A stretch of DNA of 64,000 nucleotides from GCA_000165345.1 CM000435.1:192001-256000, one strand, 5' to 3'; counted from the first letter of the stretch, positions 8,506 through 41,381 are shown. Notes: a model not told the origin generated them from the sequence alone. Numbers and translations: made by a program.

Positions 8506-8730
8506 GAGGTATCGAGAATTTTATAAATGTCAATAAAAAACTGGAAAATAGATTATATTTTTCTTTTCAATATATTTTTTAAATAAGAATAAAGAAAAGT
8601 AGAAGCTTAAACAGGTAATAAAGAAGAAGTATCTCTTTTGAGTCTTTGTTAAGAATTAGAGTTTTATGAGTAATTACCAATACAAAAAAATTAAGTATTA
8701 GAGGTGAAAGGAAGAAAATAATATATTATA

Positions 8731-17061: not shown

Positions 17062-17416
17062 TAAATTATTAATAGAGAAAAAAAAGAGGTACCTAAATGA
17101 GCCTTCATGCATGCATGCGTATGAATATGCATGCATGCATACCGTGACACGTAATTGTATATAAACATAAAATTTAGATTTTCTATCCATTATTTCCGTG
17201 TTTATTATTTATTTGTTGATTTGATTTGATTTTTTGTTCTCTTACTAATTAATTAAAGTAAAAGTTTTGATGATTAGGGCGAAATGAGTGTAATTATAAT
17301 TCGTTCATAATGGCGGAATGATGGAAAGAGCAGTAAAGATATATTGTGGTTGGATGATGCGGTAAATATAATTTAGATGATAAAGAATAGAATAAGTTAA
17401 TTCAAATATTACAAAA

Positions 17417-18211
17417 TTAATTTGCCCTTTCCACTGCTTTAATAACTTCCTTTGCATTTTCCGACCATTTTCTGAATGTTTCAATAGCATCAGTAATAAA
17501 GCTATTAGAAGTCTCATCAGCATCTTTAAGTTGTTTATCAACTTGGGAAATCTGTGTTTGAAGTTCATGGAACTCTTTTGTAAGTTGATCCAGATTTGTT
17601 CTAAGCTTGGAATTTAATTCTAATAGAAATTTCTCCTCTTCAACAATAATAAGTGATTTAGCTTTTTCAACCACAGGAACCAATCTATCAACCATTAAAC
17701 ACTCTTCCTTATCTTTTTGAGTATGTATTCTAGCAAGATCAGCAGCTGATAGCTTATATACTTCCTGTCCAAGCTCTTCAACTAAAGCTAATCTCTCATC
17801 CACAATATCTAACTTATATTGAATCTTGAATTTTTCTGAATTTATACGAAAAATTTCAATCAATTTGAGTTTGAGCTCGTGTAAAAAGCACTTATATTTG
17901 CTCATAATATCCATATAGACATCATTTGGAAGATCTCCAAATGGCCGAATGATATCTGTCAGTGATGGAATACTTGAAACTACTCCAACCAATTCTTTTT
18001 CCCCCTTCTTGCTATCATTTTCATTCTCTCCAAATCTCCATTTACTTCCCCATTCTGTATCGCTATCCTTATTCCTATTCAATTTACTTTCTCCAGTTAC
18101 CTGGATTGTGTTAGCATCTTTATTTTCATCAATAATAAAACCTTTCGTCTTCCCAATCCATTGATTGAGAATTTGATGATATCTCGAAGCTTTCATTTTT
18201 TCTTGTCTCAC
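17417..18211 (-). CDS. Hypothetical protein, 264 aa, C-terminal half predicted coiled-coil. No family recognised.
   Basis: Complete ORF with compositional and codon-usage continuity. E2F/GC-box and TGCATGCATGC motifs lie 300-350 bp upstream (18514-18565). Confidence 0.55.
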   Translation of the reverse strand: MRQEKMKASRYHQILNQWIGKTKGFIIDENKDANTIQVTGESKLNRNKDSDTEWGSKWRFGENENDSKKGEKELVGVVSSIPSLTDIIRPFGDLPNDVYMDIMSKYKCFLHELKLKLIEIFRINSEKFKIQYKLDIVDERLALVEELGQEVYKLSAADLARIHTQKDKEECLMVDRLVPVVEKAKSLIIVEEEKFLLELNSKLRTNLDQLTKEFHELQTQISQVDKQLKDADETSNSFITDAIETFRKWSENAKEVIKAVERAN

Positions 18212-18639
18212 ATTAATCTTTAATTTATTCTAAAATAATTAAATCTCATGAGAAAGAAATCTTTACCAATATAATATTACTAAACCCCACCCCAACAGCT
18301 TCCGCTTCCTCTTTTCTTAAGCCCTTTGTACCGAATCTCACTTATGAAAGAACACAGTAAAAAAAAATGCAACTTTTTTTCAATAGCAAAAATCTTTGCC
18401 AAGTTCACCGTCCTTTATCCGCTCTATTCTCCAATTCCTCCACCCTTAAATTCAAAAAAAAAAAAAATCAACAATGCTTTCTAAAAAATTATACTTATGG
18501 GGGCTCAAGAAAAGCCCGCCCTAAAACATACCGGCTCCCCACATTGCATGCATGCTTGTGGCGCCTGTTTGCTTGCAATGACTAACTATAAAAGCGTAAA
18601 ACGGTTTTAAGGTTTAAAAAAGGAGAATCAGAGTTCTCA

Positions 18640-20400
18640 CTATTTTTTAGGTTTCTGTTTCTGTTTTTGGCGGTGATTGCTCTGTCTGGAAGATGCTACA
18701 GCTGCAGCAGATGCCTCAAGTGTTGGGAGCCCAGGAATAACATACTCATTCTTGGGCTTTTGTTGTACATTAACAACAGTTGGGACATTATTGGAATCTC
18801 TAGCAGCTCTCATCCTCTCAGCGAATCCACTACTTGCCCATTTTGGTCTGTAGATTTGTTTTTCTGGCTGAGGTTTTGAGTTAAATTCCCTTCCAGGAGA
18901 AACTGATCTATATTTCACTGAGCGTCTATAATCAGCAGTCTTTGGAGACCAATAAGCTGAGTAAAGTGTGTCGAAGTTGACTCTTTTAAGCAAATCACCA
19001 TTATATCTAAAGATCCGAATCGCATTATCTACTCTAAGTCTGGGAGAGGTAGTAGAAGCCAGTAGAAACCTTCCACAAACTGACCATTCAAGAGTAATAC
19101 AACAAGAAGCATTAGTTTGGCCAATAAGCTTCTGTTTATCAAGATCCCAAATATCTAGATCTCCTGCAAGGTTTCCAAACCCTCCATATGCAAACCATTT
19201 TCCTGAAGGGTTCCATCTAATTGTATTTCTTCTGGATTTCCCAAAGCTAACTTTAGGAGAGCCATCAATCCCACTATTCAAAGTCAGCTCTGGAGGAATA
19301 ATTCCCTTACATAAGAGAAATTCATTGGATTTTGGAGACCAAGCAACATCATTCACAGGACCTTCTTCTGGTGGAACAACCACTTGATGTCTTAGACTCA
19401 GCTTCTCTGAGGGTTTAAAACCATCGCTTCCATTTTTATTTCCATTTTCAAGATCATTATTTCCTCCTTTATTTCCTTTCCAAGCACTATTTGCCACAAC
19501 AGTCTTAGAGTTTTGAATTCGAAGTAGATGCAGACTTGAAGATCCAAAATAAGATTTTCCCAAAGTTTCACCTTCAATTTGAGCAAACACTAAAATACTA
19601 TCCCCTGAGTTATTCCAAGAAACTTGACATGTTTGAGCTTCTTTTACACAAACTTGTCCAATTGAGCTAAGCTGGATCTCTTTTTTGCTGTCCATCTCTG
19701 CATGGTATACATATACATCCATATTTTGTGCAGATTGGGGAGTTACTACTGTAAAGTTCAAGCTACTCAATTTAGATCCTTCTTCTCCTAAATCACTTCC
19801 TCCATCAATCTCGTTAGAAACTGAAAGTTGTATACTTTTTGAGAAATTTAAAGTTCCTATAGGATTTTCCAGGCTTTCAGTATCGCTTTTAAATATTGAT
19901 ACACTGGTATCTTGGACTTTAAATACAAAGATCTCATTATTACTCCATCTATATGGAGGCCAAGTACTAAGAACTTTTGCACTGTTTGTTTTAAAAGGAA
20001 AAGAAAACAGTAATTTTACATTTTCCTTCAGTTTGTAAACTTGTAGGTTATTTTCATTCTTTCCTTGTTCAAATACTGTTAAAACCAATAAATAACTTCC
20101 TAATGGTGAATATTGCAACTTTCTAACTGGGAAATCATTCTCTATCTTAAGCTCCTTATTAACTTCACCTTCTCCTTTTGTTATTAAAATCACAGAATTC
20201 TTTGAATCCTTTGGTACAAAACAGTATCCTCTTCCTTGGGGTTCTTGGGCATAAATTTCAACACCTTCCAAAAATGGAATTGGATTGTTAACTGTTAATT
20301 CTTCAGAATTTACGTCATTCTTTGTCATTCCTCTAAGCCTATATACTCCTCCTTTTCCCAAACACACTATCTCGTCGTCATATTCCACCGCTCTAGACAT
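18640..20400 (-). CDS. EIF2A: Eukaryotic translation initiation factor 2A (eIF2A, 65 kDa WD40 beta-propeller protein), 586 aa
   Basis: WNPSGKWFAYGGFGNLAGDLDIWDL and ASTTSPRLRVDNAIRIFRYNGDLL align to the human eIF2A LAGFGNLRGQMEVWDV and TATCAPRLRVNNGYKIWHYTGSIL. There is no N-terminal RRM (so not eIF3b). The basic KQKQKPKK tail fits. Confidence 0.85.
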   Translation of the reverse strand: MSRAVEYDDEIVCLGKGGVYRLRGMTKNDVNSEELTVNNPIPFLEGVEIYAQEPQGRGYCFVPKDSKNSVILITKGEGEVNKELKIENDFPVRKLQYSPLGSYLLVLTVFEQGKNENNLQVYKLKENVKLLFSFPFKTNSAKVLSTWPPYRWSNNEIFVFKVQDTSVSIFKSDTESLENPIGTLNFSKSIQLSVSNEIDGGSDLGEEGSKLSSLNFTVVTPQSAQNMDVYVYHAEMDSKKEIQLSSIGQVCVKEAQTCQVSWNNSGDSILVFAQIEGETLGKSYFGSSSLHLLRIQNSKTVVANSAWKGNKGGNNDLENGNKNGSDGFKPSEKLSLRHQVVVPPEEGPVNDVAWSPKSNEFLLCKGIIPPELTLNSGIDGSPKVSFGKSRRNTIRWNPSGKWFAYGGFGNLAGDLDIWDLDKQKLIGQTNASCCITLEWSVCGRFLLASTTSPRLRVDNAIRIFRYNGDLLKRVNFDTLYSAYWSPKTADYRRSVKYRSVSPGREFNSKPQPEKQIYRPKWASSGFAERMRAARDSNNVPTVVNVQQKPKNEYVIPGLPTLEASAAAVASSRQSNHRQKQKQKPKK

Positions 20401-21339
20401 TTTCCAACTCTAATTACAATAAGTTTTCTTTATAATACAACTAGAAACTAATATTATATAATCTTTCTTTAATTAAAACAAAAATTTGTTTCCTCCTTCC
20501 CTTGTAGTCTCCTCCCACTCTCTTTTTATTTCTCTTTCTCTAACCTTCGTGATCTCGTACTTTCCTTTTTCTAGGTAATCCGAGCTCAAGATCCTAAAAT
20601 CTTCCTATTCCGTTCTCCGTAGTTTTCCAGCTTTTCTTCTCTCAGGGAATCCTATTTCTATTCTCCCCAAGTCTTATTTCCCTTTTTTTTCCTATTTTAC
20701 TATTATTTATTAATTTTTTTTCAAAGCTTTAGACGTATACCGGCGTCTCCCGCCTAAATGAAAATAAAGTGGGAATGAGAAATAAGGCAGAGAAAATAAA
20801 TCAAGGTTGAGGATTAAAGAATAGAAAAAAAGTGATTAAAGTAGTAGAGAATAATATAATTGGGAGTAAATAGTAATTTTGTGTATATATTTATATGAAC
20901 ACGTATATACAAATTCATTAGGTGATTGTGATCCAGTATTTGATCTTGTTATTTGTGTCTCAAAATCACTATCTTTGCCTATTTAGCCTTTGAATCAGTA
21001 AATATAAATATTAAATATATATATATAAGGTAACCGGGTACTATGACTTAAGAATTAAAGCAGGCTTTATTTCTCTACTTTGTTACTTTAAAAAAGAAGA
21101 AAATTAGTTATATTACAACTTTTAAAACTAATATTATAAAAATAAATAGATCTGGATCTTAAGTTATTAAGGGTAACTGTAAATTTGGATTAATATATTC
21201 CCATATTTAAATATACTAAAGCTCGATTATTAATTCAATAATTGAAATTTTTTCTTTATCCAGTATTGAATTAAGTTAGTGTGGAGAAACAAATCGAATT
21301 TTTAACATAAAAAGAGGATCAAATTGCTTCTACAATAAA

Positions 21340-23577
21340 TTGGTGATGAGTCTTGGTAACAATGGTAGTGGGGGAATCAATAATGGAGGATATGAAGATA
21401 TAAGATTTGGTAATAAATCCGGTACCCATAATATGGTATTTCAAGATCTAAGTGGTAAGCATACAGGATATCTTGAAATTCAACAAAATAATCATAATTC
21501 TGCTCAAATAATAATGGATGATCATGAAATAGGAGGAGGTTCTTCTCAAAGAATGGATCAATTGGGAGGTATAACGCAAAGTAATAGTAATACAGGAAGC
21601 TTAGCTGGAAGTCAGTCCTCAATAGGGAGTCAAAGCTACCAAAGCCATAGTTTGAATTCCTCATCTACTTCTCTTCCAAATTCAAATTCAAATTCAAATT
21701 TGAACATGATAATGATGAGTTCTAATTCTGTTCAAGGTCATAATCATGGCCAGAATCGGAATTCAAGTTCCCAAATTCTTCGAAGTTCTATTCATCCTCA
21801 AAATTCCCATTATTACAATAATCCAAACTTGAATAGTTCTGTTTCCCAACCAGGCCCATCTCAATTTCAACATCAGAACAATCATATGCAACAAATTCCT
21901 CAAAATGTGTACCAGCTACAAATGCAAAACCCAGTTAAGTCTCAACAATCATCTCGATCTCACAGTGTGCCTCCATCTTCATCCCCATCTCCTTCGTCGT
22001 CTCCAACTCTCCAGGCCTCTCAGTTGAATGATTACCCTTCAAAAGGTTCATACTCGCAAAGCTCGCAGGTCCTTCAACATTCTCCGTCTCCTTCGCCCCA
22101 GTATTCTCAATCTTCCCATTACTCCCAGCCTTCTCGCAATTCTCATCCATATCAGCTTACGCAGCCGTCTCAGATGTCCCAACAAACTCAGTTACAGTCC
22201 TCTCAACCACATAAGCAGATCCAATTTTCTCAATCTTCTCAGGCGTTTCAGCTTACTCAGCCATCCCAACCGTCTCAGCCTTCTCAGCCTTCTCAACTTA
22301 CTCAGCCTTCTCAGCCTTCTCAGCCTTCTCAGCCTACTCAATTTTCCCAACTTACTCAGCCTTCTCAGCTTACACAACCTTCTCAGCTCACTCAACCTTC
22401 TCAGCTCGCTCAAGCATCCCAACTCTCACAATCATCTCAGCTTGCTCAGGCGTCTCAGTCGTCTCAACAAAGTTACTTAGCTCCTTCAAACCCTTTAAGG
22501 AACTACAATATTCCTATAGAAAAGGTGGTATGGGACTATTTGCATTTCTTGTATAGACAAAACACAGGAGTTTTGGGATATTTGGCTCCTTATATAGACG
22601 AATCATTTAATATCGGTAAATTTCATTGTTTGGTAACGGAATTCTGCAAAAGACAAAGGGTATCGAAGGATGCATTGATCATAAACTCAAAGAATTGGTT
22701 TAAAGAATGCCTAGATCAAAGAGAGGCTACTCAGAGCGTGGAATTGACTATAGAGTGCGAAATAAAGAAGTATGTTGAATCTAAGATCAAACGCTATGAG
22801 GATTTAGGCTTTAAACTAGAGTCTGATAAGATCTCCAAGTTTTATTGTAATTTGGTACCATACATGATCAAAAATCTTTGGAGAAGATTGGAAAATGCAA
22901 GTTATCAAAGAGTTGACTGGTCATCTAGACAGTTCTTAGGAAGTGAAGTAGACCCCAAATTTTGCAATTATGATATGGTTAGCAGAATTATGAGACTTAA
23001 CAGCAGCAATTCTGATGAATCTAATAGGGATAATAGTGAGACGGTATCTGGAAATAAGGCAATCAGGTCTCAGGATAATGATAAGGAATTATCATCCAGG
23101 GAAAAACACGAAGGATCTGACTATATGATGGATTCAAACTCAGATTCTGGTAACAGAAGGAGCCATCAAAGTATTATGAATGTTAAAGCAAATATTGATG
23201 ATCATCATGACCATTGCATAAATGAAATTGATAATTCTCAGAGTCATGGCCAAAACTACAGCCAAAATCAAAATCAAGATGATATTCAAATGAATAAAAG
23301 AAGGAATCCAGATGAACACGATGAACAGACAAAAGAGATGGTAATTGTTTCCAGGACTCAGAAATGGCTCTTAAGAAACGTTAAACTTGAAGATTTTAAG
23401 TACTTAATTAGAGTTGATCAGCTTAGAGAAGAGAATATATTGAGAAATTCTGCTCCATCAAAGCATAAGTCCAAGTCGAAATCAAGATCATCTAGTTCTA
23501 ATACCTCAGTAAGACTACCTAGGAAGACTCAGAATGTTATTTTAGACTACATTAACTTGTGTAATTTTAAAATTTAA
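21340..23577 (+). CDS. Hypothetical Ser/Gln/Pro-rich low-complexity protein, 745 aa, with a tandem QPSQ(L/P)(T/S) repeat array and a non-repetitive C-terminal domain
   Basis: Long ORF. The internal 9/18-bp tandem repeats (cagccttct / cagcttactcagccttct) are in frame. No family recognised for the C-terminal 350 aa. Confidence 0.55.
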   Translation: MVMSLGNNGSGGINNGGYEDIRFGNKSGTHNMVFQDLSGKHTGYLEIQQNNHNSAQIIMDDHEIGGGSSQRMDQLGGITQSNSNTGSLAGSQSSIGSQSYQSHSLNSSSTSLPNSNSNSNLNMIMMSSNSVQGHNHGQNRNSSSQILRSSIHPQNSHYYNNPNLNSSVSQPGPSQFQHQNNHMQQIPQNVYQLQMQNPVKSQQSSRSHSVPPSSSPSPSSSPTLQASQLNDYPSKGSYSQSSQVLQHSPSPSPQYSQSSHYSQPSRNSHPYQLTQPSQMSQQTQLQSSQPHKQIQFSQSSQAFQLTQPSQPSQPSQPSQLTQPSQPSQPSQPTQFSQLTQPSQLTQPSQLTQPSQLAQASQLSQSSQLAQASQSSQQSYLAPSNPLRNYNIPIEKVVWDYLHFLYRQNTGVLGYLAPYIDESFNIGKFHCLVTEFCKRQRVSKDALIINSKNWFKECLDQREATQSVELTIECEIKKYVESKIKRYEDLGFKLESDKISKFYCNLVPYMIKNLWRRLENASYQRVDWSSRQFLGSEVDPKFCNYDMVSRIMRLNSSNSDESNRDNSETVSGNKAIRSQDNDKELSSREKHEGSDYMMDSNSDSGNRRSHQSIMNVKANIDDHHDHCINEIDNSQSHGQNYSQNQNQDDIQMNKRRNPDEHDEQTKEMVIVSRTQKWLLRNVKLEDFKYLIRVDQLREENILRNSAPSKHKSKSKSRSSSSNTSVRLPRKTQNVILDYINLCNFKI
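22246..22462 (+). repeat. In-frame coding minisatellite of about 24 degenerate 9-bp units (CAGCCTTCT / CAGCTTACT = QPS/QLT) inside the S/Q-rich gene
   Basis: Read directly. The antisense and alternate-frame ORFs the track lists here (22028..22480, 22192..22422) are repeat artefacts. Confidence 0.8.
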
Positions 23578-23726
23578 TTTAATTTAAAAAAAAAGAAATT
23601 GGATTTATAATAGGCGCCAAATTCCACTAAAGATTTTGCATGCATGCATTTTTATATATATTATAGATACCCACTTATATAGTAGAAAAAAAAATTTAGA
23701 CAAATTAAAGTTTTATATATTTATGA

Positions 23727-25238
23727 TCATCTTATTACATCATTAATTACTTGTTTATTTACATGCAAATACAAGAATAGGCTTGAAATACTGAGTGAGG
23801 AAATAGTTAAGGTTAGTATTATATAGATCTTAGATAATCTTGAGACAAATATTAAAAAGAAAAGCTTGTAGATATTGATAATCAAGTCATTTGAAAGTAC
23901 TTTCCACAAAAAATAGGTAGATATATTAAATTCATGTGTCTCTTTATGTTTATTTAAAATGTAAAGACTATATAAAATGTTTTCAAGGGAAAACAAGTCT
24001 AGGTAAAATGCTAAATCTGCAAGTTGAAGAATCTTGAATGGCTTTATTTTGGTTTGATTCTGCTTGAGTTGTGAGGTATATTTCGTTAAAGCTACTCTAA
24101 ATGAGTCACTAGCATTAAAATGAAAGTAGGAAATCAGTCCTTGGGTAAAGAAAGTTTGGGAAAACTTGCAAAATAAAAAATTGTCTTGGTGTACACTTGG
24201 AAGAGCTGAAAGAAAAGATGTTAAGGAAACGGATAATGATGAAGATGATGATGAGGAAGAGGAGGGAAGATCTGAGAGAACTTGACTAGACAAATGGCAA
24301 TCATCTTTTTTTTTACTTCTTTTTTTACTGTGAATATCCATACTTTGGTCTCTACCAATATCTTGTTCTTGGGATTTGGTTGAGTGGAATGATGATGAGG
24401 ACAAAGGGGAAATTTGTTGATTCACTTCTTGGCATCCAAAATTATCTTGATTTTGATAAAGTTCTGCTTTGATTGTCGAATAATAGGAAGAGGAAGAAGA
24501 TGAGGAAGAAGAATGAAGATTTTGAGAACCAAAAGATGAAGTTTGTCCAGGATTTTGAGTGTTATTAGTTATCCAATTAAAACTAGAAGTTATATTTCCA
24601 GCAGCTAGAAAAGATCTAACTTGGATGACCAAGAAGCTTAAACGAACCAAAAAAAACAAAACTGATTGAGAAAGTTTTAAATACTGGGATGATAAGTAAC
24701 TGAAAAATATAATGTCAACAATTTCATGAAATCTACTTACGACACCTATTATACTGCACCAAGTATTATATATTCCACTAAATTGATTATGGTTAAATAT
24801 ATCATTTTGAAAGAATAGAAATTTACATAAATACTTTTCTTTATTAAATAGAAAAATTGAATAAATAACTCCAATTGTGTAAACTAATAAATAAAAGCTC
24901 CATGAATTATATATAAATATGTTTGATTTTATTAAGATGGTATCAAATTTATTATCAAAATCCAAAATATTTCGCGAGTTTCTTTGTATAATTTGTATTA
25001 ATAAAAAAACTAATATATTAAAAGAATATTTATAAAACAAAATCTCACCTAATTTATCCATTATTTCCAAATAACTAAAAAGATCAATCTTCATTTTTGG
25101 AACTGATGTCCAGTTATCTAAGTTTATGTTTGGATCCTCATTTAATTCTGAAATAATTATCTCATCAAGTACTGTTGAGAAGCTCAATTCATGGCTTCTT
25201 TCAGAATCTGTCAAAAATTCTTGATAGTTATCAATCAT
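23727..25238 (-). CDS. Hypothetical multi-pass membrane protein, 503 aa, with Ser-rich linkers
   Basis: Complete ORF with several hydrophobic 20-25 aa segments (FNILVFLLIQII, FYLLVYTIGVIYSIFLF, IYIILTLTISSLSISSLFLYL). E2F-like TTTTCCCGCCA and ATGCATGCATAC lie 270-340 bp upstream. Confidence 0.5.
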   Translation of the reverse strand: MIDNYQEFLTDSERSHELSFSTVLDEIIISELNEDPNINLDNWTSVPKMKIDLFSYLEIMDKLGEILFYKYSFNILVFLLIQIIQRNSRNILDFDNKFDTILIKSNIFIYNSWSFYLLVYTIGVIYSIFLFNKEKYLCKFLFFQNDIFNHNQFSGIYNTWCSIIGVVSRFHEIVDIIFFSYLSSQYLKLSQSVLFFLVRLSFLVIQVRSFLAAGNITSSFNWITNNTQNPGQTSSFGSQNLHSSSSSSSSSYYSTIKAELYQNQDNFGCQEVNQQISPLSSSSFHSTKSQEQDIGRDQSMDIHSKKRSKKKDDCHLSSQVLSDLPSSSSSSSSSLSVSLTSFLSALPSVHQDNFLFCKFSQTFFTQGLISYFHFNASDSFRVALTKYTSQLKQNQTKIKPFKILQLADLAFYLDLFSLENILYSLYILNKHKETHEFNISTYFLWKVLSNDLIINIYKLFFLIFVSRLSKIYIILTLTISSLSISSLFLYLHVNKQVINDVIR

Positions 25239-25651
25239 TGTTATGCTAGCTAAGAAGCTAGCTTACTTGTCTTATGTTAGATTTTCTGCTTTCCCTAATT
25301 TCACACACTTTTTTTCAATTAATTTGCCAATTTTCTTATTTTTTGCTCAATGTTTAACCTGAATAACCATATTTATTTTAACAATTAGCCAATTTTGTTG
25401 AGTAAAACTTATTCTTATGCCTTAATCTAAAGTTAACCAGTAATTATTTATCTTTCTTATGCGCTTTTATTATATATTTTATTTTCTCCATATTTTTTAT
25501 CATTTTCCCGCCATACATGCAAATTTCCGGCGCACAGCCCCCCACGAGACGAATTTTGAAAGAAAAATGCATGCATACAAATTTCAGAGAATATTCAAAG
25601 AAAAAAAAAATGAAAGCTTCTAAAAAGCTATTTTAGTTTACAGAAGACAAT

Positions 25652-27063: not shown

Positions 27064-27227
27064 TTTATCCAATGATTATACAAAATCAAAATACAAACTT
27101 TGAAAAAAATTCTCTATAAAATAAATAGAATAGAAATTGAAACCAAATTATTTATCTATTTATTATTTGTAATAATAAATATCCAACCACTATTGCAATG
27201 TACACAGATTTCGCATGCAACATGGCT

Positions 27228-27264
27228 GTGGGGAACACGTGTACTATATTCACACGTGTGGGGA
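27228..27264. promoter_or_regulatory. Twinned G-box/E-box element (GTGGGGA-ACACGTGT ... ACACGTGT-GGGGA) 165-200 bp upstream of the PGK ATG
   Basis: CTGTGGGGAACACGTGTAC (27226-27244) and CACACGTGTGGGGAG (27251-27265). Two palindromic ACACGTGT cores lie 17 bp apart, each flanked by GTGGGGA in mirror arrangement. Confidence 0.4.
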
Positions 27265-27478
27265 GAATATTTCTACTAAAATTCGAGCACTACAAGTTTT
27301 TCTTTCCTATTTTCTTTCTTTCTTCCTTATACCATCAATTCTATAATTACTAACTACAATCTAACTTTATATTTAATTCAAAAACAATTACAATATTTAA
27401 ATAAACTTGAATAAAATCATTCGAGTCTACCTATAAAGAAATCCTTGAAAACTTTTGCTTGTTTTAAAATAACAAATG

Positions 27479-27491
27479 TTTTGGCGGGAAA
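27479..27491. promoter_or_regulatory. Canonical E2F site TTTTGGCGGGAAA about 415 bp upstream of PGK
   Basis: Exact match to the E2F consensus TTTSSCGC/GGCGGGAAA. Followed by CTTGCGCC. Confidence 0.4.
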
Positions 27492-31020: not shown

Positions 31021-31587
31021 CTTTTTTCCCCTACTTTTCTTTCTTTCACTCTCTCACGGAATTTTAGTTTTTAAGTATCCAATTATGCCAATTAAATGTG
31101 AATATAGAATTTAATTTCTGATTAAATATGACTAATAAATTGTTTCAGAACTAGCAAACAATGATCTTCCTTATTCTAAAATATTACATAGAAACTCTTT
31201 GCAAAATTGAGTTTAAGAGAATCACAATATTAATATTTCCAATTGCTCTTCAAATTTCACTCTTTTATAGTTAATGTCAATTTTACACTTCCAAAACTTT
31301 TTTTGCAAACCCCCAACCACACTTCAACAGGTGCCGCCAATTATAGCTATTTTTTTTTCATGTTAATGAGTTGTAATTTAAAAAATGTATTTTAAACCAA
31401 GTAAGTTTGGGCGGGTTCATGTGAGAATTTAATTAAAAGGCTTTAAGAAGTTAATAAAAGCTTGCAGTGGTTTCTTAATTTGCAGGTATTATAGTCCGTG
31501 GAATTAATGATCACGTTAGCAGAAGAGTGAGTAGCCAGTCAAATTCTTTAGTTTAATACTTGTTAAATTGCAAACGAAAATCAAGCT

Positions 31588-33327
31588 GTGATGTTTGAAA
31601 AGATTTTTGACAGATATTCGAAAGGTATATATAAAGTTATTGATACTTGTGCAAGTTTACTATATTGGTCTTTAAGAGTAACAAGGTATTTCTTTCCACT
31701 GACTATTGCTTTAGTATTGTTAAGTTTTACGATCTTCAGTTTAACATGGATACTTTATCTTGGATTTTATTGGTATTGGATACCTCCAAAATCTATTTCA
31801 TTCCCAATAAATTTTGATTTCCAAAATAAGTACTTTTCTCAATTAATACCAGATAACTACTTGTATAGCGACCAATCCTTTAATAAGTTCTCAAATTCAG
31901 CTCCAGGCTTATCCCAAAGGAATTACCAAGACAATGTATATAATAACTTTATAAACAGTAATGAATTATCTAGGCAGCTAATGTATGAACAATCTGAAGC
32001 CTCTGCCATTCTGAACTTTAATAATATTACTTGGAGGTACAAGAATGTTGGTAATAAAAGATATTCAATCACCAATAAGAGCTTATTTAACCAAACGCAC
32101 TTTCTTGAAAATACTGACATTTCCACTGAAAAAAATGGTGATATTAGTACTGGAACTCTGAGTTATTTCTTATACTTGAAGGATTATTGGTCTTCTAAAG
32201 CTTATAATTTTGTTACATTTAACTGGTACCAAAGAAAAAAGTACTATAAAGGGATTGACGAGGGAATTAATCGAATAATTCACAAACATGTTGACTCTAG
32301 ATTTGGAAATAGGATGAATTCGGAAATCCTTGGAAACGAAATTGATATTATTGTTGAGCTTTTTTACTTCCCAAGTCAATATAATATTAATATTTCTCCT
32401 TTTCAAATTTCTCTGGATTTAATCCAATGCTTAGAACCAAATATCAATCTTAACCTCGGAAGTGATATTCATAATAATAACTCTTCAAAAATCCTGGCTA
32501 GTTTCAAGAAAACATCCACTATTGAGTACTTACCACAAGTTGTCTTAAGATTTAAAGAATACATTTCTATCATTCCGTCTCTGCTTGGCCTACAAATCAA
32601 CTCCTTAGGACTCGGACTTGAAAACAAAATCAGTGTCAAACTTGTTGAGAACTTTCCTCTTCAAAGGAAACATCCCTTCAATTTTAATTCACTTGAAACA
32701 CATATCAAGTTATGTGGAGCAAAAATTAAAATGAAGCCTGCTCTCCACATCTCAAAAAGTCACCTCATTTTCCAAACGAAGCTACCTTTTTGGAAAGAAA
32801 TTATTAGAAACCACCCAATCTTAATGGGAAATATGGTTTCTTTCATTGTCACACTCTTCCTACTTTCGTTACTTTTCTTTATCGTCTTCTTATCTGGAAT
32901 CTATTTCTTATGGAAAAAGTATCCTGCAAACAACTATAATGACTACCATATATCAAATAGCTTCCTTCCTACTGGCACTGTTACATATACTAATTGTACC
33001 CCAACTTCTTCCTACCAAATTAATAGCAATGGATTTAACCAAGGTAATAACCAAGATTTCTCTTCAACAAAGAATATCCCTCTTTCCAATTGTGAACAAC
33101 TTTTAATTGACTATTCAATGACCAATTCTTCCATTAATATCAATGGACTTTTACCTCTTGAAACTAAACAAATTTCTCATCCCAGAAATCAATATATTAC
33201 ACACTCTCAGTCATTTGGCGACCGTAATTCTGATGAAAATATCAAATCTGAGGAAAATGGAGATTCTAATGAAAAATCCATCCAATCTCCCAAATCTAAT
33301 TCTTCCTCCAATCATTCTGAAACTTAA
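31588..33327 (+). CDS. Seipin-like protein (candidate lipid-droplet biogenesis factor), 579 aa
   Basis: N-terminal TM helix followed by LYLGFYWYWIPP (compare the seipin hallmark LYGSFYYSYMPT), a roughly 330-aa luminal domain, then a second TM (MVSFIVTLFLLSLLFFIVFLSGIYFLW) and a Ser/Asn-rich cytosolic tail. The topology and N-terminal motif match seipin; similarity elsewhere is weak. Confidence 0.5.
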   Translation: MMFEKIFDRYSKGIYKVIDTCASLLYWSLRVTRYFFPLTIALVLLSFTIFSLTWILYLGFYWYWIPPKSISFPINFDFQNKYFSQLIPDNYLYSDQSFNKFSNSAPGLSQRNYQDNVYNNFINSNELSRQLMYEQSEASAILNFNNITWRYKNVGNKRYSITNKSLFNQTHFLENTDISTEKNGDISTGTLSYFLYLKDYWSSKAYNFVTFNWYQRKKYYKGIDEGINRIIHKHVDSRFGNRMNSEILGNEIDIIVELFYFPSQYNINISPFQISLDLIQCLEPNINLNLGSDIHNNNSSKILASFKKTSTIEYLPQVVLRFKEYISIIPSLLGLQINSLGLGLENKISVKLVENFPLQRKHPFNFNSLETHIKLCGAKIKMKPALHISKSHLIFQTKLPFWKEIIRNHPILMGNMVSFIVTLFLLSLLFFIVFLSGIYFLWKKYPANNYNDYHISNSFLPTGTVTYTNCTPTSSYQINSNGFNQGNNQDFSSTKNIPLSNCEQLLIDYSMTNSSININGLLPLETKQISHPRNQYITHSQSFGDRNSDENIKSEENGDSNEKSIQSPKSNSSSNHSET

Positions 33328-34388
33328 CTTTCTCATTCATCAAATTATACTAATTCATTTATACTATTCATTTTATCTTCACAATCGTATTGTCTAGTTC
33401 TAAATATTAATTACTGTTATACCTTTTTCTATTCAAAATAACTCATTTTCCTTTGTTTCTCCAACACCATCTACTCTTTTTATTTATCATAAAATATTGT
33501 TACTCCATTTCTTTATTTTTCAAATTCGAATTCTCAATATTCCTTCTTTTGCTCTGCCTCAATACAGGTTTTATTTGGATTCACACGTATACCGGCATGC
33601 AAGCCCTGCGCTGTCAGACTCTGCATGCATGCGCCTTTCCCCACATATACATCCCAACTCCTGACACGTAGTACTCATCCACATAAAACTTAAGTGCAAA
33701 ATAATAAAAAGCAATAGTGAAAGAAAAAATTAATTTTTTTTTTTATTTTTATATTGGGATTTTAATAGCTAAATTAAGTAGATAGGGCATGGAACAAACT
33801 GATACCAATTATTCCTTATCGCAAATGCCCAATCTTTCATTCAGTAATATCTATGTATCCGAAATGCCTAAATAATTAGCAATTATTCCTTGTACTTTTG
33901 GTATTTGAGCGGACAAAAATGATAATAATAATAATATTTACTGGTATTTTTCTACCACTCGTCCATGCTCATGGTTGTTGAAGAACAGATTACAAATCAC
34001 ATATTTTTATGCACTTGGCGAATTAAAAAAAAAAAGCAATTAAGTGAGATCACCTCTTTCCTTTTCCTCATTTCCTGCTTAATCATGGAAATCTGTAATC
34101 CCAGGGGTCACTGCACCTAATTCAAACTTGTACACATTTTTTTTTTTTTTTTTTGTTCACAACATCAACCATCATGACAGACTATCCTGCATATTACACC
34201 CCCTTATACTGAAAATCACAAGTGTCTCTTCTTCAATTTTCGGGCATCAAGTTAAAAAAATTAACACAATAAACATCACTATTAATTATATCAGTCACCG
34301 CGGAGCCACACTCTTATTCAAAGTCTTATCAGTCAAATTCATATTTCCTTATTCTAATTTTTTTTTTTTTTTTTTCGAGACAAGTCCG

Positions 34389-35249
34389 CTATTTTCGGTA
34401 TCTCTTGCCCTGATATGGGTCACGACTAATCGAATGACTGTGCTCTCTACTTATGCTTCCGCCTCTGTATGGAGACCTACTAACACTTCTTCCTCTTGGT
34501 GAATGATAACTGGGACTTCTGCTTGAATAGCGTCTCTTAGGCCTGTAGTTCCTATCATCATCTCGATAGCCACCTTGTCTCCTTCCACCATAATAATCGT
34601 CTCTATATCTTCCTCCCCTGTAACCATGCTCTGGTGGATAACCTCCAGATGGTCGATGATCATAACGGGATGGAGGACCTCCCATTCTGGGACCTCTTCC
34701 AGAATCTCTTTGAATTCTTCTCATAGTTTCCGGACTCTTTCTACGATCGTGAGCTACAACAACTCTAATAGTGCTTCCGTCCAATAAACTTCCATCTAAT
34801 CTATTAACTGCATCTTGTGCATCTCTTGGGTCCATATATTCCACAAATCCGAATCCTCTAGGTCTTCTAGTATAGTAATCAAGAGGAAGATAGACATCCC
34901 TCACTGGACCATATCTCTCGAAATGGTGTCTTACACGACCGGGAGATGTCTCAAAGCGCAGATTACGAACAAGTAAGCTGCATCCCTCAGATACATCAAC
35001 TTCTGACTTTTCACGGGAACGTGATCTATCCCTCTCTTCAACTGGTTCTCTATTATCTTCATTCCTTCCTTCATTGTTACGTTGTTCATCATCAGATACT
35101 CCTCTTTCTCTTGAAGGGGATTTAGACTCGTCAATCTTTCTGTCCCCTTCTCTATTTTCGTCTCCACCATCATTGTAATCTATATATACTTTCTTTGTCG
35201 AGTTATCACCACCAATCCCATCATCGCCTAACTCTACTGAGAACGTCAT
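34389..35249 (-). CDS. SR-family splicing factor (SRSF2/SC35-like), single RRM plus RS/RGG/RD-rich C-terminus, 286 aa
   Basis: The RRM SLLVRNLRFETSPGRVRHHFERYGPVRDVYLPLDYYTRRPRGFGFVEYMDPRDAQDAVNRLDGSLLDGSTIRVVVA aligns to human SRSF2 [76 protein letters not shown]. The C-terminus is rich in RS, RD and RGG dipeptides. Confidence 0.82.
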   Translation of the reverse strand: MTFSVELGDDGIGGDNSTKKVYIDYNDGGDENREGDRKIDESKSPSRERGVSDDEQRNNEGRNEDNREPVEERDRSRSREKSEVDVSEGCSLLVRNLRFETSPGRVRHHFERYGPVRDVYLPLDYYTRRPRGFGFVEYMDPRDAQDAVNRLDGSLLDGSTIRVVVAHDRRKSPETMRRIQRDSGRGPRMGGPPSRYDHRPSGGYPPEHGYRGGRYRDDYYGGRRQGGYRDDDRNYRPKRRYSSRSPSYHSPRGRSVSRSPYRGGSISREHSHSISRDPYQGKRYRK

Positions 35250-35432
35250 TCGGAATCGATAGCTCTCTGAAAACTTAGCTAAAACGACACCTCCTTCAAC
35301 AATCTATAACTCTCTGTTTGTTTCTTCTCGATAACAAGCTATTATTAATCACTAGGTTTTTTTATTCAATTAAATTAATCGTACTTGTTTAGCCGAATAT
35401 ACACAAGTGGCATTTATTTAAAGTCGCCAGAA

Positions 35433-35442
35433 CCCGCCAAAA
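35433..35442. promoter_or_regulatory. E2F-like site CCCGCCAAAA about 185 bp upstream of the SR-protein gene
   Basis: Read directly from the sequence. Confidence 0.35.
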
Positions 35443-35469
35443 CTTCCACTATTTAAAGTTGATAATATA

Positions 35470-36000
<531 letters not shown>

Positions 36001-36948
36001 TTTCTTTTTCTTAGAAAAATAATTTGTATGTATACGGTTGCCACTCCAATATAAACATTTTTAAGAGTATTTTTTTAATTATGCACAATACATTTTGATT
36101 ATATTTGAAATATTTCCTAGTCATAGCCTTGTATTTTGTTGTATTCCCTCAAGTCTCTCTATTCTCTAGATTACAACCTCGAGTATGGAAAGAAAAGAAA
36201 ATCTTGCATATTTCAATTGTGGCTATTCTTTAATTAATCTTTTTAATTGTTTACTGCTCAAATTCATCTACAGGTTGAGAACTCTATACCCTGGAAAAAA
36301 TAAATTTTTATTTTCCATGCATGCGTTTTTTAAAACTATTGAAAAAAAAGCTGCATGCAATTTACTTGTTCATAGCATTGAATGACTTATTATCTAGTGA
36401 GGATATTTTAGATAAAAATATATTATTTATTATTTCTTCTTTCCCTTTTTTTTTTTAACTAAATAATTTCTGAGAATCCATATGGATTTTCCCATTGAGT
36501 GATTTCCTACTAACACAAAAGCGTATTACAAGTAATAGCTAAATAATAACAAAAAGAAAGCAAAAGAGATTAAAATATGAAATAGATACAAACACAGAAT
36601 TTGGAGGATAAATGTTAGTAATAATTAATACCTATATATTATAGATTAAAGTAAAACAACAACTAGGCAGATTGTAGTAAGTAATTTAATAGTCTTAAAA
36701 AGAAAGACAGTTGGGTTGAAGATGATCTCCAAAGTCATTTATAGAATCCATGGGATTCTTTGATTCTCGTACGATTTTAAATTTAAAACTTTCACCAAGT
36801 TGAGGTTATTAGTATTTTGAGAAAACAGCCCCAGCTGAGTTTCATACACTTTTGAGGTATCAAAATGTTGGTAATTGTCTGTATTATGGGACTTTGAAGT
36901 GTTCCAAAATATTTAAACGAATTAGGATCTGTTAGTACTTATTCTAGC

Positions 36949-38370
36949 TTAAAACACAATGTTCCCACTTTCTCTTTCTTTAGCAAACATCTCGTAATAC
37001 TGGAAAATGATCGTAACAGCCAGTAAAATACCAGTTCCACTACCGATAGCTCCAAGGAAATCTGCAATTATAGTTAGAGCTCCAATACACATACCACCAA
37101 AGGCAGCAGCAGTGGGGATGTAACGATTTAAAACTTGAACAAGTGAGCTATCTCTGTATCCCTTCATAATCATTTGTTGATCTCTGAGTTGCTTCGCAAC
37201 ATCCTTTGCAGAAGATCCAGATACTTCGATCCAGGTTTTGGAGAAGAGAGCACATGATATTAAGACAAACGAGATGTAGAAGAAGGTGTGAATTGGATCA
37301 GAAACTACATCCACCAAAGAGTTAGGAGGTGAAATGTAGTATGCAATACCTCCAACTGGAATAGATTGGCCACCAACATCAAGTTCTTGCCATTGTCCGA
37401 GAATATTCACAAGCATATTTGATTTGAATCTGCGGTAAAGTAGCTGGGAGAAGAAGTATAGATTAGATACAAGAGCAGTTTGAAGGATAATTGGGATGTT
37501 TGATGTGTAGAAGAGCTTAATTGGGAACGAACCCTGTTGGCCACGTACCTTCTGGTACTTAACAGCAAGATCTACTCTGAATCCTTGGAAGTAGATAACA
37601 ATAAGGAAAACCAATACAGTCGCAAGTAAGTTTGTCATATTTGTAGCGTGGGATCTGTAGAAGGCTTCTCTTAATGCTGAAATCTTATCAGGCTTTGTGA
37701 ATAGAAGATGGAAGAGAGCAATAACTGCACCTTCGAATTCAGTTCCTCTACCGGTATTAATAGTTGTTGGACTAAATGCCTTCCAGACAATAGTTTCACA
37801 GATATTGGTAGCAATAAAGAGTGAAATACCTGATCCAAGACCATAGCCTTTTTGCATGAGCTCATCAAGAAGAATAACTACAACACCAGCAAAGAAGAGT
37901 TGAATGATGATCAAAATTGCATTCCAGGCACCAATTGTTCTAATATCACCATACATACCACTAATAACATATGCAACAGCTTCACCCAATGTGATAAGTA
38001 AGCCAAAAAGTTTCTGTGCTCCTTGGAAAAGAGCTCTATCTTCCTTTAAACTTTGATCAACATCGATGATTTTGCTTCCTGCTAATAACTGCATAACCAT
38101 ACTGGAAGTGACAATTGGTGAAATACCCAATTCCATGAGTGTTCCTCTGTTTGAAGCCAAAATTACTCTAACCCAGTAGAATGGATCCGAGCTTTTGCTA
38201 CTTAAAACTCCGTAAAGTGGAATTTGACAGCATACCAAAAAGACAAACAGAGATATTAAAGTCCATAGGACTCTCTCCTTAAAGGGTACTCTGCGGTCTG
38301 GAGACGATACCTCAGGAATGACGCACAGAGCTGGCTTAATCAAATTCAAAAATCTCAATCCCTTAGCCAT
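36949..38370 (-). CDS. SEC61A: Protein translocon subunit Sec61 alpha (SecY family), 473 aa
   Basis: [104 protein letters not shown] is near-identical in pattern to human SEC61A1 residues 1-100. Confidence 0.97.
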
Positions 38371-38557
38371 TTTCTCTTAACTTAGCTTCTTAAGCTATAA
38401 ATGTAATTAAAGTTCAACTTTAATCTCGTGTTTTTTTGCTCGTCCACCCCTCACTTTCATTTACCCTCGCGCTCTTGCCTTGAGCTCTTCTTCATGGTCC
38501 AAAACAAATATCCATACGTCTCAACAATTACCGCCCACAGACCCCCACATCCGTTCA

Positions 38558-38567
38558 TTTTGGCGGG
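38558..38567. promoter_or_regulatory. E2F-like site TTTTGGCGGG (plus an ACCGCCCAC GC-box at 38529-38538) about 190 bp upstream of Sec61 alpha
   Basis: Read directly from the sequence. Confidence 0.35.
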
Positions 38568-38769
38568 CATTCCTTGTGTTATAAATGGATGCAAAAGAGG
38601 TTAGAGATTAGGAAGTCTCAACAAATAAATCATGCAAAATTAACAGGCTATTTAAATATAATTGCTTAATAATGAAGCCTTTTTTAAGTAAATGTATATT
38701 TATGCATATATATACATACTTTAATCAGCTATAGATACGCCCTTAAATTCTACGAAGATCTTATCTAAT

Positions 38770-40374
38770 TTAAGATTCTTGTTTTCTTGTGTTCTTTTTG
38801 ATAATCTTCTCTAAATCACAGTAAAATGAATTTCTATTTATAGGAATGGTTTTTCTAGTCCTAGTATTTTCCTCTATTATTGTAGCCGGGTTTTTTCTCC
38901 CGTCTCTTCTGGATTTTCTGAATTGTCCATATGATGACATAGGCAATGGTATTATATTATGGTTTGTATTTAAACCAGAAGATAAATCCGAAGGACAGTC
39001 AATTATAGGCTCCCACATAACCAGACATGGCTTAGGATTTTGTCGGATTGGTAGGGTGTTTATTTTGTTAATATTAGAAATCTCAACTTTCTTAAGTTCA
39101 GTCTTTTTAAGTTTTGGGAATGAATTTATAATTGAAATATTGATAATCTTTTCAATATTCTTGAAAACAACCTGCTTGTTATTAAATATCTCTATATCAG
39201 TTTCAGTATACTTTTCTGAAAAACTGTTATTTACTAATATATCATATAAAACCTCACTTTCATCCGGTATGTTTTTTTCTGGTAATGCAGAATAATCATT
39301 TGTTGTATTTTCAAGTTGTAGCTTTAATCTAGAATTCTCTTCTTTGAGATACTGAAGGTCCAAGTTTAAGATTTGGATTTGATCTTTCAATTCCAAGATT
39401 CCTAAATCTTCTTCACGAAAAGTCTCTTGCAGGCTTGAATTATCGCATTTTCTGTTATTCTGGCAATTAATTACTTGATTAAAGTTAGTAATTGGCTCTA
39501 ATTTAAGAGGAGTAATTTTGTTTTCATTTTCTTTTTTAATATTTTCATTTACATATATACATTCTATTTTTTCATCACTCCCAAAATATATACCGAGCTC
39601 ATCCCTTGGAGATTGACACAAACTTTGTTCATTATCTGTTTTTATATATTGTTCAAATTCCTGATCTTGTCCAATATTCAATTCTTGAATATTGATCTGG
39701 GATATTATTTCGTTATTAGTTTTACTCAATTCTTTTAAGTCACACTTTAAATATTCAATCTGCTTTTCATGAGCATAACACAATGCTTCCTTGCTTCTAA
39801 GCTTAATTTCCATCTCTTTAAGCTTGTTTTCTAATTCTCTTGTCTTATCGCTCTTAATTTTATCTAATTCATTATTCATCTCAACATCATACTTTTCGAT
39901 CTTATTTCTATGCTTTGTTAGTCTATTTACACTCCTACAAAGTCTTATTAAACTGCTATTTTCATTAATTTCACTGAGACCTAGTTCATTACAATCCCCC
40001 AGTGAATTTGAAATACCTTCAGAATCATCTCCTCCTTCATTTTCATTCACTACTTTACAATTAACATAACATTTTGTTCCTACTAATGCGGAAGTAAGAG
40101 TCTCCAGACTAATCACTGAATTATCCAATGCTATCAAATACTCATCATCAATATTTTCTTGATTATTTAATAAACTATTTTTTAATAACTCTTTCATCCC
40201 TTCAATAAATTCGGACTTTTTTAAACCCTGATTAATTCTTTCATTTCCACTTCCACACAAATGATATAATTCTAATAGCTCATTTTCAAGGCTGCAAAAC
40301 AGTCCTGCCAACTGAATTGTCACGTTATCTATTCTTTTCACTAAATCCCTTACTCCATCATCAAAATCCAGCAT
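38770..40374 (-). CDS. Hypothetical coiled-coil protein, 534 aa. No family recognised.
   Basis: Complete ORF with heptad-rich, E/K/L-rich segments (ELENKLKEMEIKLRSKEALCYAHEKQIEYLKCDLKEL; QILNLDLQYLKEENSRLKLQLEN). Confidence 0.5.
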   Translation of the reverse strand: MLDFDDGVRDLVKRIDNVTIQLAGLFCSLENELLELYHLCGSGNERINQGLKKSEFIEGMKELLKNSLLNNQENIDDEYLIALDNSVISLETLTSALVGTKCYVNCKVVNENEGGDDSEGISNSLGDCNELGLSEINENSSLIRLCRSVNRLTKHRNKIEKYDVEMNNELDKIKSDKTRELENKLKEMEIKLRSKEALCYAHEKQIEYLKCDLKELSKTNNEIISQINIQELNIGQDQEFEQYIKTDNEQSLCQSPRDELGIYFGSDEKIECIYVNENIKKENENKITPLKLEPITNFNQVINCQNNRKCDNSSLQETFREEDLGILELKDQIQILNLDLQYLKEENSRLKLQLENTTNDYSALPEKNIPDESEVLYDILVNNSFSEKYTETDIEIFNNKQVVFKNIEKIINISIINSFPKLKKTELKKVEISNINKINTLPIRQNPKPCLVMWEPIIDCPSDLSSGLNTNHNIIPLPMSSYGQFRKSRRDGRKNPATIIEENTRTRKTIPINRNSFYCDLEKIIKKNTRKQES

Positions 40375-41381
40375 TATTTTTAATATTTAATATATTTTTC
40401 CCCCTAATCTTCTCACTATATAAATATCTAAAATATTTGTTTAATCTTTTTAAAAAAAATCGTTATTTGTGTGTTAATTTTTAATATTACGCTGTTTCGT
40501 AATTAATTTTTCCATACAATTTTAAGTGTGTATTTATTTAAACTAAATCAAATTGAATTATTTACATTTTAATGAAAACTGTAGAAATTGGAAATTTACT
40601 TAAACCTATTCAAGCTAAAAAATCCTTTAAAAATGCAACATTAAAAAAATAATACTACTTGTTTATCTACTTAACTATTTCATTCTTTTTTATAATTCAT
40701 ATTGGCATTTTTATATTTAAACATGCATACAAACTCTTTTCCCGCGTACTCTATACCGGCATTTACCTTTATTTTTACATAAATTACGTGTGCAAATAAT
40801 AAATATTTTGACACGTAATGTCAGAAATATTTTATTGAAAAAAAAAGAAAAACTAATGAAGCAAAATTTTTTACATAATTTATGCATCTACTTATCTATA
40901 CTCTATTTTCCTTGCTTTATATTTATTTAAAGTATTCTCTTTTTATCTAATGAACTGAATAAATATAAAGTTAACAAAATTAATGTCTTTACCCTTCCCC
41001 CCACTATTTCTACAAAGGATTAAATGCATATCTGCATGCATACATGCAAAATCAATATTTGAATTCCAAATAGTATCAAATTTATAAAATGCTGAGAAAT
41101 GAAACAAAATAACAATTAATTGAAAATAATATAACATTAATCGCCTTATTAATAAGCTGTCTAATCTACATTTAACTAAAAAAAAAAAAGAAATAATACT
41201 TTTCCACTCTTTTCTTTGAAAGAAGCAGAACAATCGTGTTAAATTTAAATATAAATAGTAATAATATTAAAATAGTTGGTTGTATATTGTTTATTGTCAA
41301 AAAGTTAAAATTTTGTTACATGAAAATTATATGGAATTTTATTTCCCTTTCTGGATCAAAGTGTATGTATTATAGATATTT

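Follow-up and report, generated by a model that had tools for sequence, protein, structure and literature searches.

The intergenic spacers of a 64,000-nt stretch of Cryptosporidium parvum DNA (CM000435.1:192001-256000 of GCA_000165345.1; the whole stretch is termed the window) contain short GC-rich islands, which are made up of known AP2_1, E2F/DP (TTTSSCGC, GGCGCC, CCCGCC), and G-box (CCCCACA/TGTGGGG) sites together with two unlisted motifs. These islands are probably clusters of short sequence-specific protein-binding sites, that is, cis-regulatory modules acting as transcription-factor-site clusters, and we put the probability of this reading at about three in four. The two unlisted motifs, (T)A-TACCGG-[C/T] and ACACGT(AAT), appear to add two previously undescribed members to the class of upstream motifs known in Cryptosporidium. 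All counts were made on ~73 kb of one chromosome, comprising the window and, as fresh sequence, the 8.6 kb preceding it (L018). Syntenic loci were compared in C. meleagridis, chipmunk genotype I, C. ubiquitum, C. canis, C. felis, C. andersoni, and the species L009. The identity of window proteins to their orthologues was 98% in C. hominis (one protein) and 92-98% in C. meleagridis (two proteins), which marks the DNA as C. parvum-type.

The recurring core was TACCGG[C/T] rather than ATACCGGC, and it had seven intergenic sites in the window; relaxing the final base brought in three further intergenic TACCGGT sites, at 2877, 8468, and 49850, which had been missed earlier because a final C had been required. 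The consensus of ten C. parvum-type sites was (T)A-TACCGG-[C/T]-[A/G]-T. In the 22 spacers, TACCGG was observed 11 times compared with 1.15 expected under a first-order Markov model, and 9 of the 22 spacers (~40%) carried it. ATACCGG occurred nine times in the window (0.77 expected), four of these in coding DNA, and the TACCGG[C/T] sites were distributed as seven intergenic versus three coding (p = 0.0016).

TACCGG was present in the orthologues of motif-bearing window spacers in 15 of 29 cases, compared with 0 of 34 for other spacers (Fisher, 6e-7). In an unbiased hexamer conservation scan, TACCGG ranked 2nd of 2080, and the hexamers of catalogued motifs were CCCCAC (3rd), CCCGCC (7th), TGGCGC (19th), and GCATGC (24th); by family, the G-box took ranks 3 and 6, and E2F took ranks 7, 19, and 26. 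The alignments showed TACCGG as a conserved island amid diverged spacer sequence, which is the pattern of a phylogenetic footprint, in which a site is kept at its orthologous position while its flanks diverge.

An E2F-like site lay within 30 bp of TACCGG in 15 of 21 sites across species, compared with 10% of random positions in the same spacers, and a GCATGC-type motif lay within 30 bp in 10 of the 21. This E2F-like site, 4-28 bp away, was the most regular partner of ATACCGG and had been missed in an earlier note on this DNA, which described a recurrent GC-rich composite element at five places. Across seven spacers with lengths of 404-1007 bp, TACCGG lay 262-383 bp from the start codon of the gene that follows it (P about 3e-4), and similar distances were found in the orthologues. 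A distance held relative to the ATG is the behavior expected of a promoter element. A fixed orientation relative to the gene was also considered and was rejected, as TACCGGC precedes a plus-strand gene in C. canis and minus-strand genes in C. parvum.

The clusters of the window, named below by their position in thousands (for example, 18.5k), were as follows.

2877-2883, plus strand: TACCGGT, 383 bp upstream of the start codon (3260) of a Patched-like gene, with GCATGC/TGCATG at 2912-2993.
8467-8478, plus strand (8.4k): TATACCGGTAAT, then the E2F site GCGCGCCAAAA at 8495-8505; 262 bp upstream of the start codon at 8731.
17106-17155, plus strand (17.1k): GCATGC repeats at 17106-17118 and 17127-17139, a degenerate ATACCGT at 17139-17145, and GACACGTAAT at 17146-17155; spacer between two gene 3' ends.
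18514-18565, plus strand (18.5k): E2F-like GCCCGCCC at 18514-18521, CATACCGGC at 18527-18535, G-box CCCCACA at 18537-18543, TGCATGCATGC at 18545-18555, and E2F site TGGCGCC at 18559-18565; 333 bp upstream of the start codon (18196) of a minus-strand gene.
20730-20754, plus strand (20.7k): TAGACG at 20730-20735, TATACCGGC at 20736-20744, and E2F-like TCTCCCGCC at 20746-20754; divergent spacer between eIF2A and a gene for a 743-aa protein, 338 bp from the eIF2A start codon (20400).
23613-23647, no strand assigned: GGCGCC and GCATGCATGC; the spacer is 149 bp long and separates two gene 3' ends.
33583-33672, plus strand (33.6k): ACACGT at 33583-33588, TATACCGGC at 33588-33596, an overlapping GCATGCA at 33595-33601, TGCATGCATGC at 33622-33632, CCCCACA at 33639-33645, and GACACGTAGT at 33663-33672; spacer between the 3' ends of the Seipin and SR-protein genes.
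40722-40819, plus strand (40.7k): CATGCAT at 40722-40728, E2F site TTTTCCCGCG at 40737-40746, TATACCGGCAT at 40752-40762, and an imperfect inverted repeat, ATTACGTGTGCAAATA / TATTTTGACACGTAAT, at 40783-40798 / 40804-40819; 380 bp upstream of the start codon (40374) of a minus-strand gene.
49841-49883, plus strand (49.85k): ACATGCATTTACCGGTCATTAATAGATCCACATAAATGGCGCC, consisting of an AP2_1-like site, TACCGGT, and an E2F site; 338 bp upstream of the start codon (49512) of a minus-strand ankyrin gene.

The gene calls placed all five places of the earlier note (17.1k, 18.5k, 20.7k, 33.6k, and 40.7k) between called genes, as it had stated. A GC-rich island of E2F-like, GCATGC, and G-box motifs was present in nearly all spacers, and the TACCGG clusters are a subset of this general spacer feature. 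A shared function was also sought among the proteins neighboring the clusters, and the Pfam search gave no significant domains.

Site by site, the 8.4k block is kept in L009 (TATACCGATAAT...GCGCGCC) and in C. canis (GTACCGGCAAT...GCGCGCC), which retains TACCGG and, 27 bp downstream, the E2F site. At 17.1k, (GCAT)n and ACCGT..ACAC are partly retained in C. meleagridis and L009. The 18.5k block, GGGG..CCCGCC..ATACCGGC.CCCCACA.TGCATGCATG..TGGCGCC, is whole in these two species and partial in C. canis, and the orthologous spacer of 20.7k contains TATACCGGTGTTTCCCGCC in C. meleagridis and GATACCGGCAT in C. felis. Five species retain A.ACCGG and GCATGCATG at 33.6k. The 40.7k arrangement CATGCAT..TTTTCCCGC...TCTATACCGG is kept in C. 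meleagridis (with the variant TATATCGG), chipmunk genotype I, and C. ubiquitum, and CATACCGG is retained in C. felis. At 49.85k, CATGCATTTACCGGTCATTAATAGATCCACAT..ATGGCGCC is near-invariant from TACC through CCACAT in six species, including C. felis. Motifs were kept at orthologous positions in C. meleagridis, chipmunk genotype I, C. ubiquitum, C. canis, C. felis, and L009; a lack of such conservation was among the findings that the earlier note had named as counting against its element.

Two of these promoters contain other conserved sequence. Past the TACCGGT/E2F pair, at 8506-8560, GGTATCG and AATGTCAATAAA.AACTGGAAAA.AGATTA are kept here, in C. canis, and in L009, forming an additional promoter footprint of the gene for a 2776-aa protein. 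At 40460-40540, nearer the start codon of the gene for a 534-aa protein, CATTTGTGTGT(TAATTT) and (A/G)GTGTGTA are kept in six intestinal-clade species, including C. felis; these could be ApiAP2 sites of the CACACA type, or could belong to the surroundings of the transcription start.

The 8.6-kb flank contained three further TACCGG sites in two spacers (3/3 intergenic), each with ACACGT(AAT) within ~80 bp. One spacer reads ATTACGTGTGCAA .. CCCCACA .. TTTTGACACCGGTAAC .. TATATACCGGCAT .. ATGACGTGTAA, and the other reads CATGCATCGCCGGTATG .. GCATGC .. ATTACGTGTCAAAA. Because the joint occurrence of the ATACCGG motif, GCATGC, and ACACGTAAT recurs in this previously unused sequence, the view that the motifs travel together was borne out. 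The ACACGT-type motif, with the consensus [G/C]ACACGTAAT, was intergenic at 8 of 8 sites (p = 5e-6), and ACACGTAAT was observed five times in the 22 spacers compared with 0.06 expected (first-order Markov). Its footprint was found among close relatives only.

The strings and coordinates of the earlier note were all correct, and their counts were far above chance, being 10 to 100 times higher than expected from dinucleotide shuffling and Markov models. The 8-mer ATACCGGC had four sites, all on the plus strand (18528, 20737, 33589, and 40753; 0.06 expected), and the 12-mer ACGTATACCGGC had two (20733 and 33585; 0.00 expected). GACACGTART, that is, GACACGTA(A/G)T, had three sites (17146, 33663, and 40810; 0.05 expected), and GCATGCATGC had five (17109, 17129, 18546, 33623, and 23638; 0.01 expected), the copy at 23638 being a fifth that had not been noted. 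The 8-mer itself was present at four of the five places, and the fifth (17139) is merely ATACCG-T. The proposal of one composite with fixed order, spacing, and strand failed: the order varies and the spacings range from 5 to 70 bp. GCATGC, said to follow the core, does so only in part, as the GCATGC repeats come first at 17.1k; 18.5k and 20.7k are without GACACGTA. The universal plus orientation was a small-sample effect and ends 10 kb away: the flank contains GCCGGTAT, a minus-strand TACCGGC, and at L018 7031-7098 the TACCGGC and ACACGTAAT motifs lie on the opposite strand. Because of this minus-strand copy and the differing order and spacing, neither a fixed composite nor a universal orientation is supported. 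The TACCGGT sites, moreover, hold a palindromic ACCGGT core.

Several components of the clusters belong to the catalogued C. parvum upstream motifs (PMC3734150 Table 1; PMC12246861 Table 3), with GCATGCA corresponding to AP2_1, TGGCGCC/CCCGCC to E2F, and CCCCACA to the G-box (PMC3734150; PMC4117751; PMC11078545). The earlier note had described its element as unmatched to any named one, and for the GCATGCATGC part, which it half suspected, this does not stand: GCATGCATGC fits the AP2_1 ApiAP2 consensus BGCATGCAH / TGCATGCA as an exact match without any difference, and is an already known component rather than a new part of a new element. The AP2_1 motif is bound by cgd2_3490 and cgd1_3520 (PMC3734150; PMC4117751; PMC11078545), the protein-binding microarrays concerning the motif in general and not the sites described here (PMC4117751). 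GCATGCATGC-type sites were intergenic in 16 of 19 cases (p = 1.4e-8), and the orthologous co-occurrence of AP2_1 GCATGC was 17/25 versus 2/17. Against the same first-order Markov expectation for the 22 spacers, GCATGC was observed 22 times (1.1 expected) and GGCGCC nine times (0.2 expected); GCATGC, GGCGCC, CCCGCC, and CCCCAC were intergenic-biased too.

TACCGG[C/T] and ACACGTAAT are both absent from the 25 motifs of Oberstaller 2013 (PMC3734150) and from the approximately six recognized upstream motif families, AP2_1, AP2_2, G-box, E2F, GAGA, and CAAT (PMC12246861 Table 3). CCGG and CACGT strings were absent from the main texts of the motif papers compared, the figure logos and the protein-binding microarray supplement of PMC4117751 lying outside this comparison, and searches for ACCGG, CCGGT, and CACGT across the set of papers searched returned unrelated primer and sequence matches only. 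The sole published trace was CCGGCAAATTTTGGCG and GCCGGCA in a supplementary table (Table S3, PMC3734150). In CCGGCAAATTTTGGCG, a MEME motif from one expression cluster, CCGGCA is fused to an E2F site, and part of TACCGGC seems to have been absorbed into an 'E2F-like' pattern. The published Cryptosporidium E2F/DP sites (DTTGSCGCCH, TTTGGCGGGAAV; PMC3734150) resemble the E2F-like sites found 4-28 bp from most TACCGG copies. E2F/DP sites have a [C/G]GCGC[G/C] or GGCGGG core flanked by T/A runs; ATACCGGC and TACCGG[C/T] differ in having no CGCG/GCGC core, and TACCGG[C/T] is a separate neighboring site.

The arrangement resembles animal elements that are paired with E2F, such as the CDE/CHR tandem sites of the DREAM complex and the Drosophila DRE (TATCGATA), in that a short, part-palindromic element has an E2F site close by, at a distance that is conserved locally. 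The spacing in TTTTCCCGC-N7-TATACCGG holds from C. parvum as far as C. ubiquitum, and that in TACCGGTC-N19-ATGGCGCC as far as C. canis. The likeness is one of architecture only: the sequences of CHR (TTYGAA) and DRE are unrelated to TACCGG, whose spacing varies by locus from 4 to 28 bp on either side, and Cryptosporidium is not known to have a homologous binding protein. The ACGT-core elements of bZIP and bHLH proteins include the G-box CACGTG and the PAR-type ATTACGTAAT. ACACGTAAT and ATTACGTGT share with them an ACGT core with one GTAAT half-site, a likeness by sequence alone, and differ in that the 33.6k and 40.8k copies are shallowly conserved. No ACGT-core motif was found in the published C. 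parvum motif tables (PMC3734150, PMC12246861).

Three side observations concern these motif families. Upstream of PGK (27213-27264), GCATGCA is followed by two copies of ACACGTGT (27235-27259) with a G-box beside each (TGTGGGGAACACGTGT ... CACACGTGTGGGG), and both C. canis and C. meleagridis retain one ACACGTGT copy. AGACGT/ACGTCT was the top hexamer for orthologous-spacer conservation (6/7 versus 1/35). The TAGACG beside TATACCGGC at 20730 fits the published, unexplained 'Unknown set 1' motifs WTAGACR and RMGACG (PMC3734150).

From these patterns we infer protein binding, the kind of binder, and an effect on transcription. TACCGG[C/T] would be a putative DNA-binding-protein site in the promoter, ~260-380 bp before the start codon, in most cases with an E2F site 4-30 bp away. 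Its factor would probably cooperate with E2F/DP and ApiAP2 factors to set the transcription of the adjacent gene, and the order, spacing, and orientation of sites within clusters appear to be flexible. E2F also dominates the peaks of the assay for transposase-accessible chromatin with sequencing (bioRxiv 10.1101/2025.01.17.633476). The clusters in spacers between two 3' ends (17.1k, 33.6k, and L018 7030-7100) would most likely drive antisense or intergenic non-coding transcripts. They may be read as antisense promoters because antisense long non-coding RNAs (lncRNAs) starting at gene 3' ends have E2F and AP2_1 motifs within 100 bp upstream (PMC7840661).

Several points weigh against this interpretation. 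The argument for function is drawn from sequence statistics and conservation only, the enrichment was counted on a ~73-kb portion of a single chromosome, and several sites are in spacers without an annotated gene to regulate. TACCGG also has seven coding occurrences. The orthologous co-occurrence of ACACGT was not significant (p = 0.16), and only C. meleagridis and chipmunk genotype I retain GACACGTA at 33.6k, C. ubiquitum and C. canis having lost it. Finally, no TACCGG was found in the orthologous C. andersoni spacers (3.8 kb). The C. andersoni spacers orthologous to 40.7k and 33.6k (L015 7889-8034 and 14499-14718) are 146 and 220 bp long, compared with ~1000 bp here, a sharp difference in spacer architecture between the gastric and intestinal clades.

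Cryptosporidium gene regulation is poorly understood, and most predicted DNA-binding proteins, including many zinc-finger proteins and the 16 annotated Myb-domain proteins of C. parvum (PMC12246861), are without a known site. A TACCGG motif conserved like the E2F, G-box, and AP2_1 sites, fixed in its distance to the ATG and adjacent to E2F would offer a concrete new handle on this question, and the clusters between 3' ends bear on the origin of antisense transcripts or the insulation of neighboring genes in a very compact genome. The finding adds to current views and does not overturn them.

A bolder and tentative extension, which we regard as possible though rather improbable, is that TACCGG[C/T] and ACACGTAAT are spacing variants of one palindromic site, bound by one Cryptosporidium protein that would be an E2F/DP partner at promoters and a marker of spacers between 3' ends. 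The common half-sites would be (A/T)(T/C)AC and GT(A/G)(A/T), either adjoining each other or separated by a central CG, as in TATACCGGTAAT, AACACCGGTAAT, and GACACCGGTAAC set against ACACGTAAT (TAC-CG-GTA versus AC-GTAAT). If it were true, the protein would start antisense transcripts or stop read-through at the spacers between 3' ends, in a genome of ~500-bp spacers.

The alternative with the next best standing, which we consider unlikely, takes TACCGG[C/T], and perhaps ACACGT, as sites of an abundant general regulatory factor similar to Reb1 or Cbf1, which would keep nucleosomes off the DNA and prevent transcription from running on between closely packed genes. The 'boundary' idea of the earlier note comes close to this. 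In yeast, such sites are TTACCCG for the Myb-like Reb1 and CACGTG for Cbf1. The c-Myb core is TAACGG, and the general Myb pattern is YAACNG. Like Reb1-type sites, TACCGG is a short promoter site of a compact genome, often beside the 3' end of the upstream gene and in either orientation: the 18.5k cluster lies 70-150 bp after the eIF2A stop, the 49.85k cluster lies 40-120 bp after the stop at 49964, and the palindromic ACCGGT core would work in both directions. The four convergent spacers (17062-17416, 23578-23726, 33328-34388, and L018 6775-7270) are rich in GCATGC clusters (4/4), ACACGT (3/4), and TACCGG (2/4) and poor in E2F (1/4, compared with 16/18 promoter-bearing spacers), a composition that suits a roadblock and also suggests antisense/lncRNA promoters or 3'-end-associated sites. 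However, there are only four such spacers, and it is from the downstream start codon, rather than the upstream stop, that the motif keeps its fixed 262-383 bp; the close pairing with E2F likewise suits a promoter role. TACCGG is one base from the Myb core but departs from the Reb1 consensus, and no such factor is known in Cryptosporidium (PMC12246861).

It is very unlikely that the islands are parts of small RNA genes or hairpins, such as 40783-40819 or GGGCT...AGCCC at 18.5k. Inverted repeats do occur at 40.8k, 17.1k, and 18.55k, and an ultraconserved non-coding block lies next to the 33.6k cluster. The repeat that the earlier note had reported at 40.8k, ATTACGTGT / ACACGTAAT at 40783-40819, was confirmed and extends to 16-nt arms with 88% complementarity. 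However, the whole window gave no credible Rfam match at the gathering threshold and no tRNA, so the islands are not known RNA genes. What is conserved is a set of 6-12 bp islands with variable spacers and no continuous helices, and the GCATGC repeats are inherently self-complementary. The arms at 40.8k change independently between species, without compensatory change. This repeat resembles a pair of protein sites in opposite orientations more than it does a hairpin.

Chance or a compositional artefact, by which GC-rich k-mers become conspicuous in a 30% GC genome and are selected afterwards, has very little to recommend it. The strings were indeed chosen after sight, four sites on one strand have a probability of 1/8, and ATACCGG occurs in coding DNA as well. 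Set against this are the excess over the shuffle and Markov expectations, the restriction of cross-species presence to orthologous spacers, and the recovery of the pattern in the flank. The over-representation and orthologous conservation uphold the view of the earlier note that these are specific cis-elements of Cryptosporidium intergenic DNA rather than chance occurrences. The replication origin or chromosome-maintenance site that it had also listed is similarly implausible: conserved non-coding status is all that favors it, a motif in about two of every five spacers is far denser than expected of origins, and the fixed start-codon distance and E2F pairing indicate transcription rather than an origin. 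Least credible of all are relics of dispersed repeats or mobile elements, similar by common ancestry and not by function, as the exact 12-mer in two spacers and the 14-mers AATTACGTGTGCAA and TTTTGACACGTAAT, each common to 40.8k and L018, might suggest, since the sites are without extended mutual similarity (ten sites with unrelated flanks, no longer common flanks or target-site duplications seen, and a window repeat search with seed 11 and minimum length 14 that returned coding low-complexity repeats only and no family linking spacers) and since each is kept at its own orthologous position across long-diverged species, indicating old, independently maintained sites.

The block adjoining the 33.6k cluster is a ~650-bp non-coding stretch (33740-34388) right behind the stop of the SR/RRM-protein gene (34389-35249, minus strand). 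Its identity was 93-100% to C. ubiquitum or chipmunk genotype I and ~70-77% in C. canis, exceeding the conservation of the adjacent Sec61-alpha coding sequence. The consensus folding energy was -105.6 for the minus strand versus -62.0. No gene was called in the block, an Rfam search of 33500-34500 (E <= 10) gave nothing credible, and neither the block nor TACCGG was present in the syntenic C. andersoni locus. Probably this block is the 3' untranslated region of the SR gene in ultraconserved form, or alternatively a non-coding RNA that has escaped annotation; it might correspond to one of the named C. parvum lncRNAs (Cdg7_FLc_0990/1000).

Two observations concern the genes themselves. The Patched/sterol-sensing gene was called as one 1481-aa gene with introns at 3260-7900, and the list of open reading frames (ORFs) gave separate ORFs to 7369; boundaries taken from ORFs only would misassign 7370-7900 as intergenic. 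Within the coding region of the gene for the 743-aa protein, a tandem repeat with a 9-bp period (22104-22469; ~26+ units, TTCTCAGCC-like) encodes a low-complexity Ser/Gln/Pro-rich tract.

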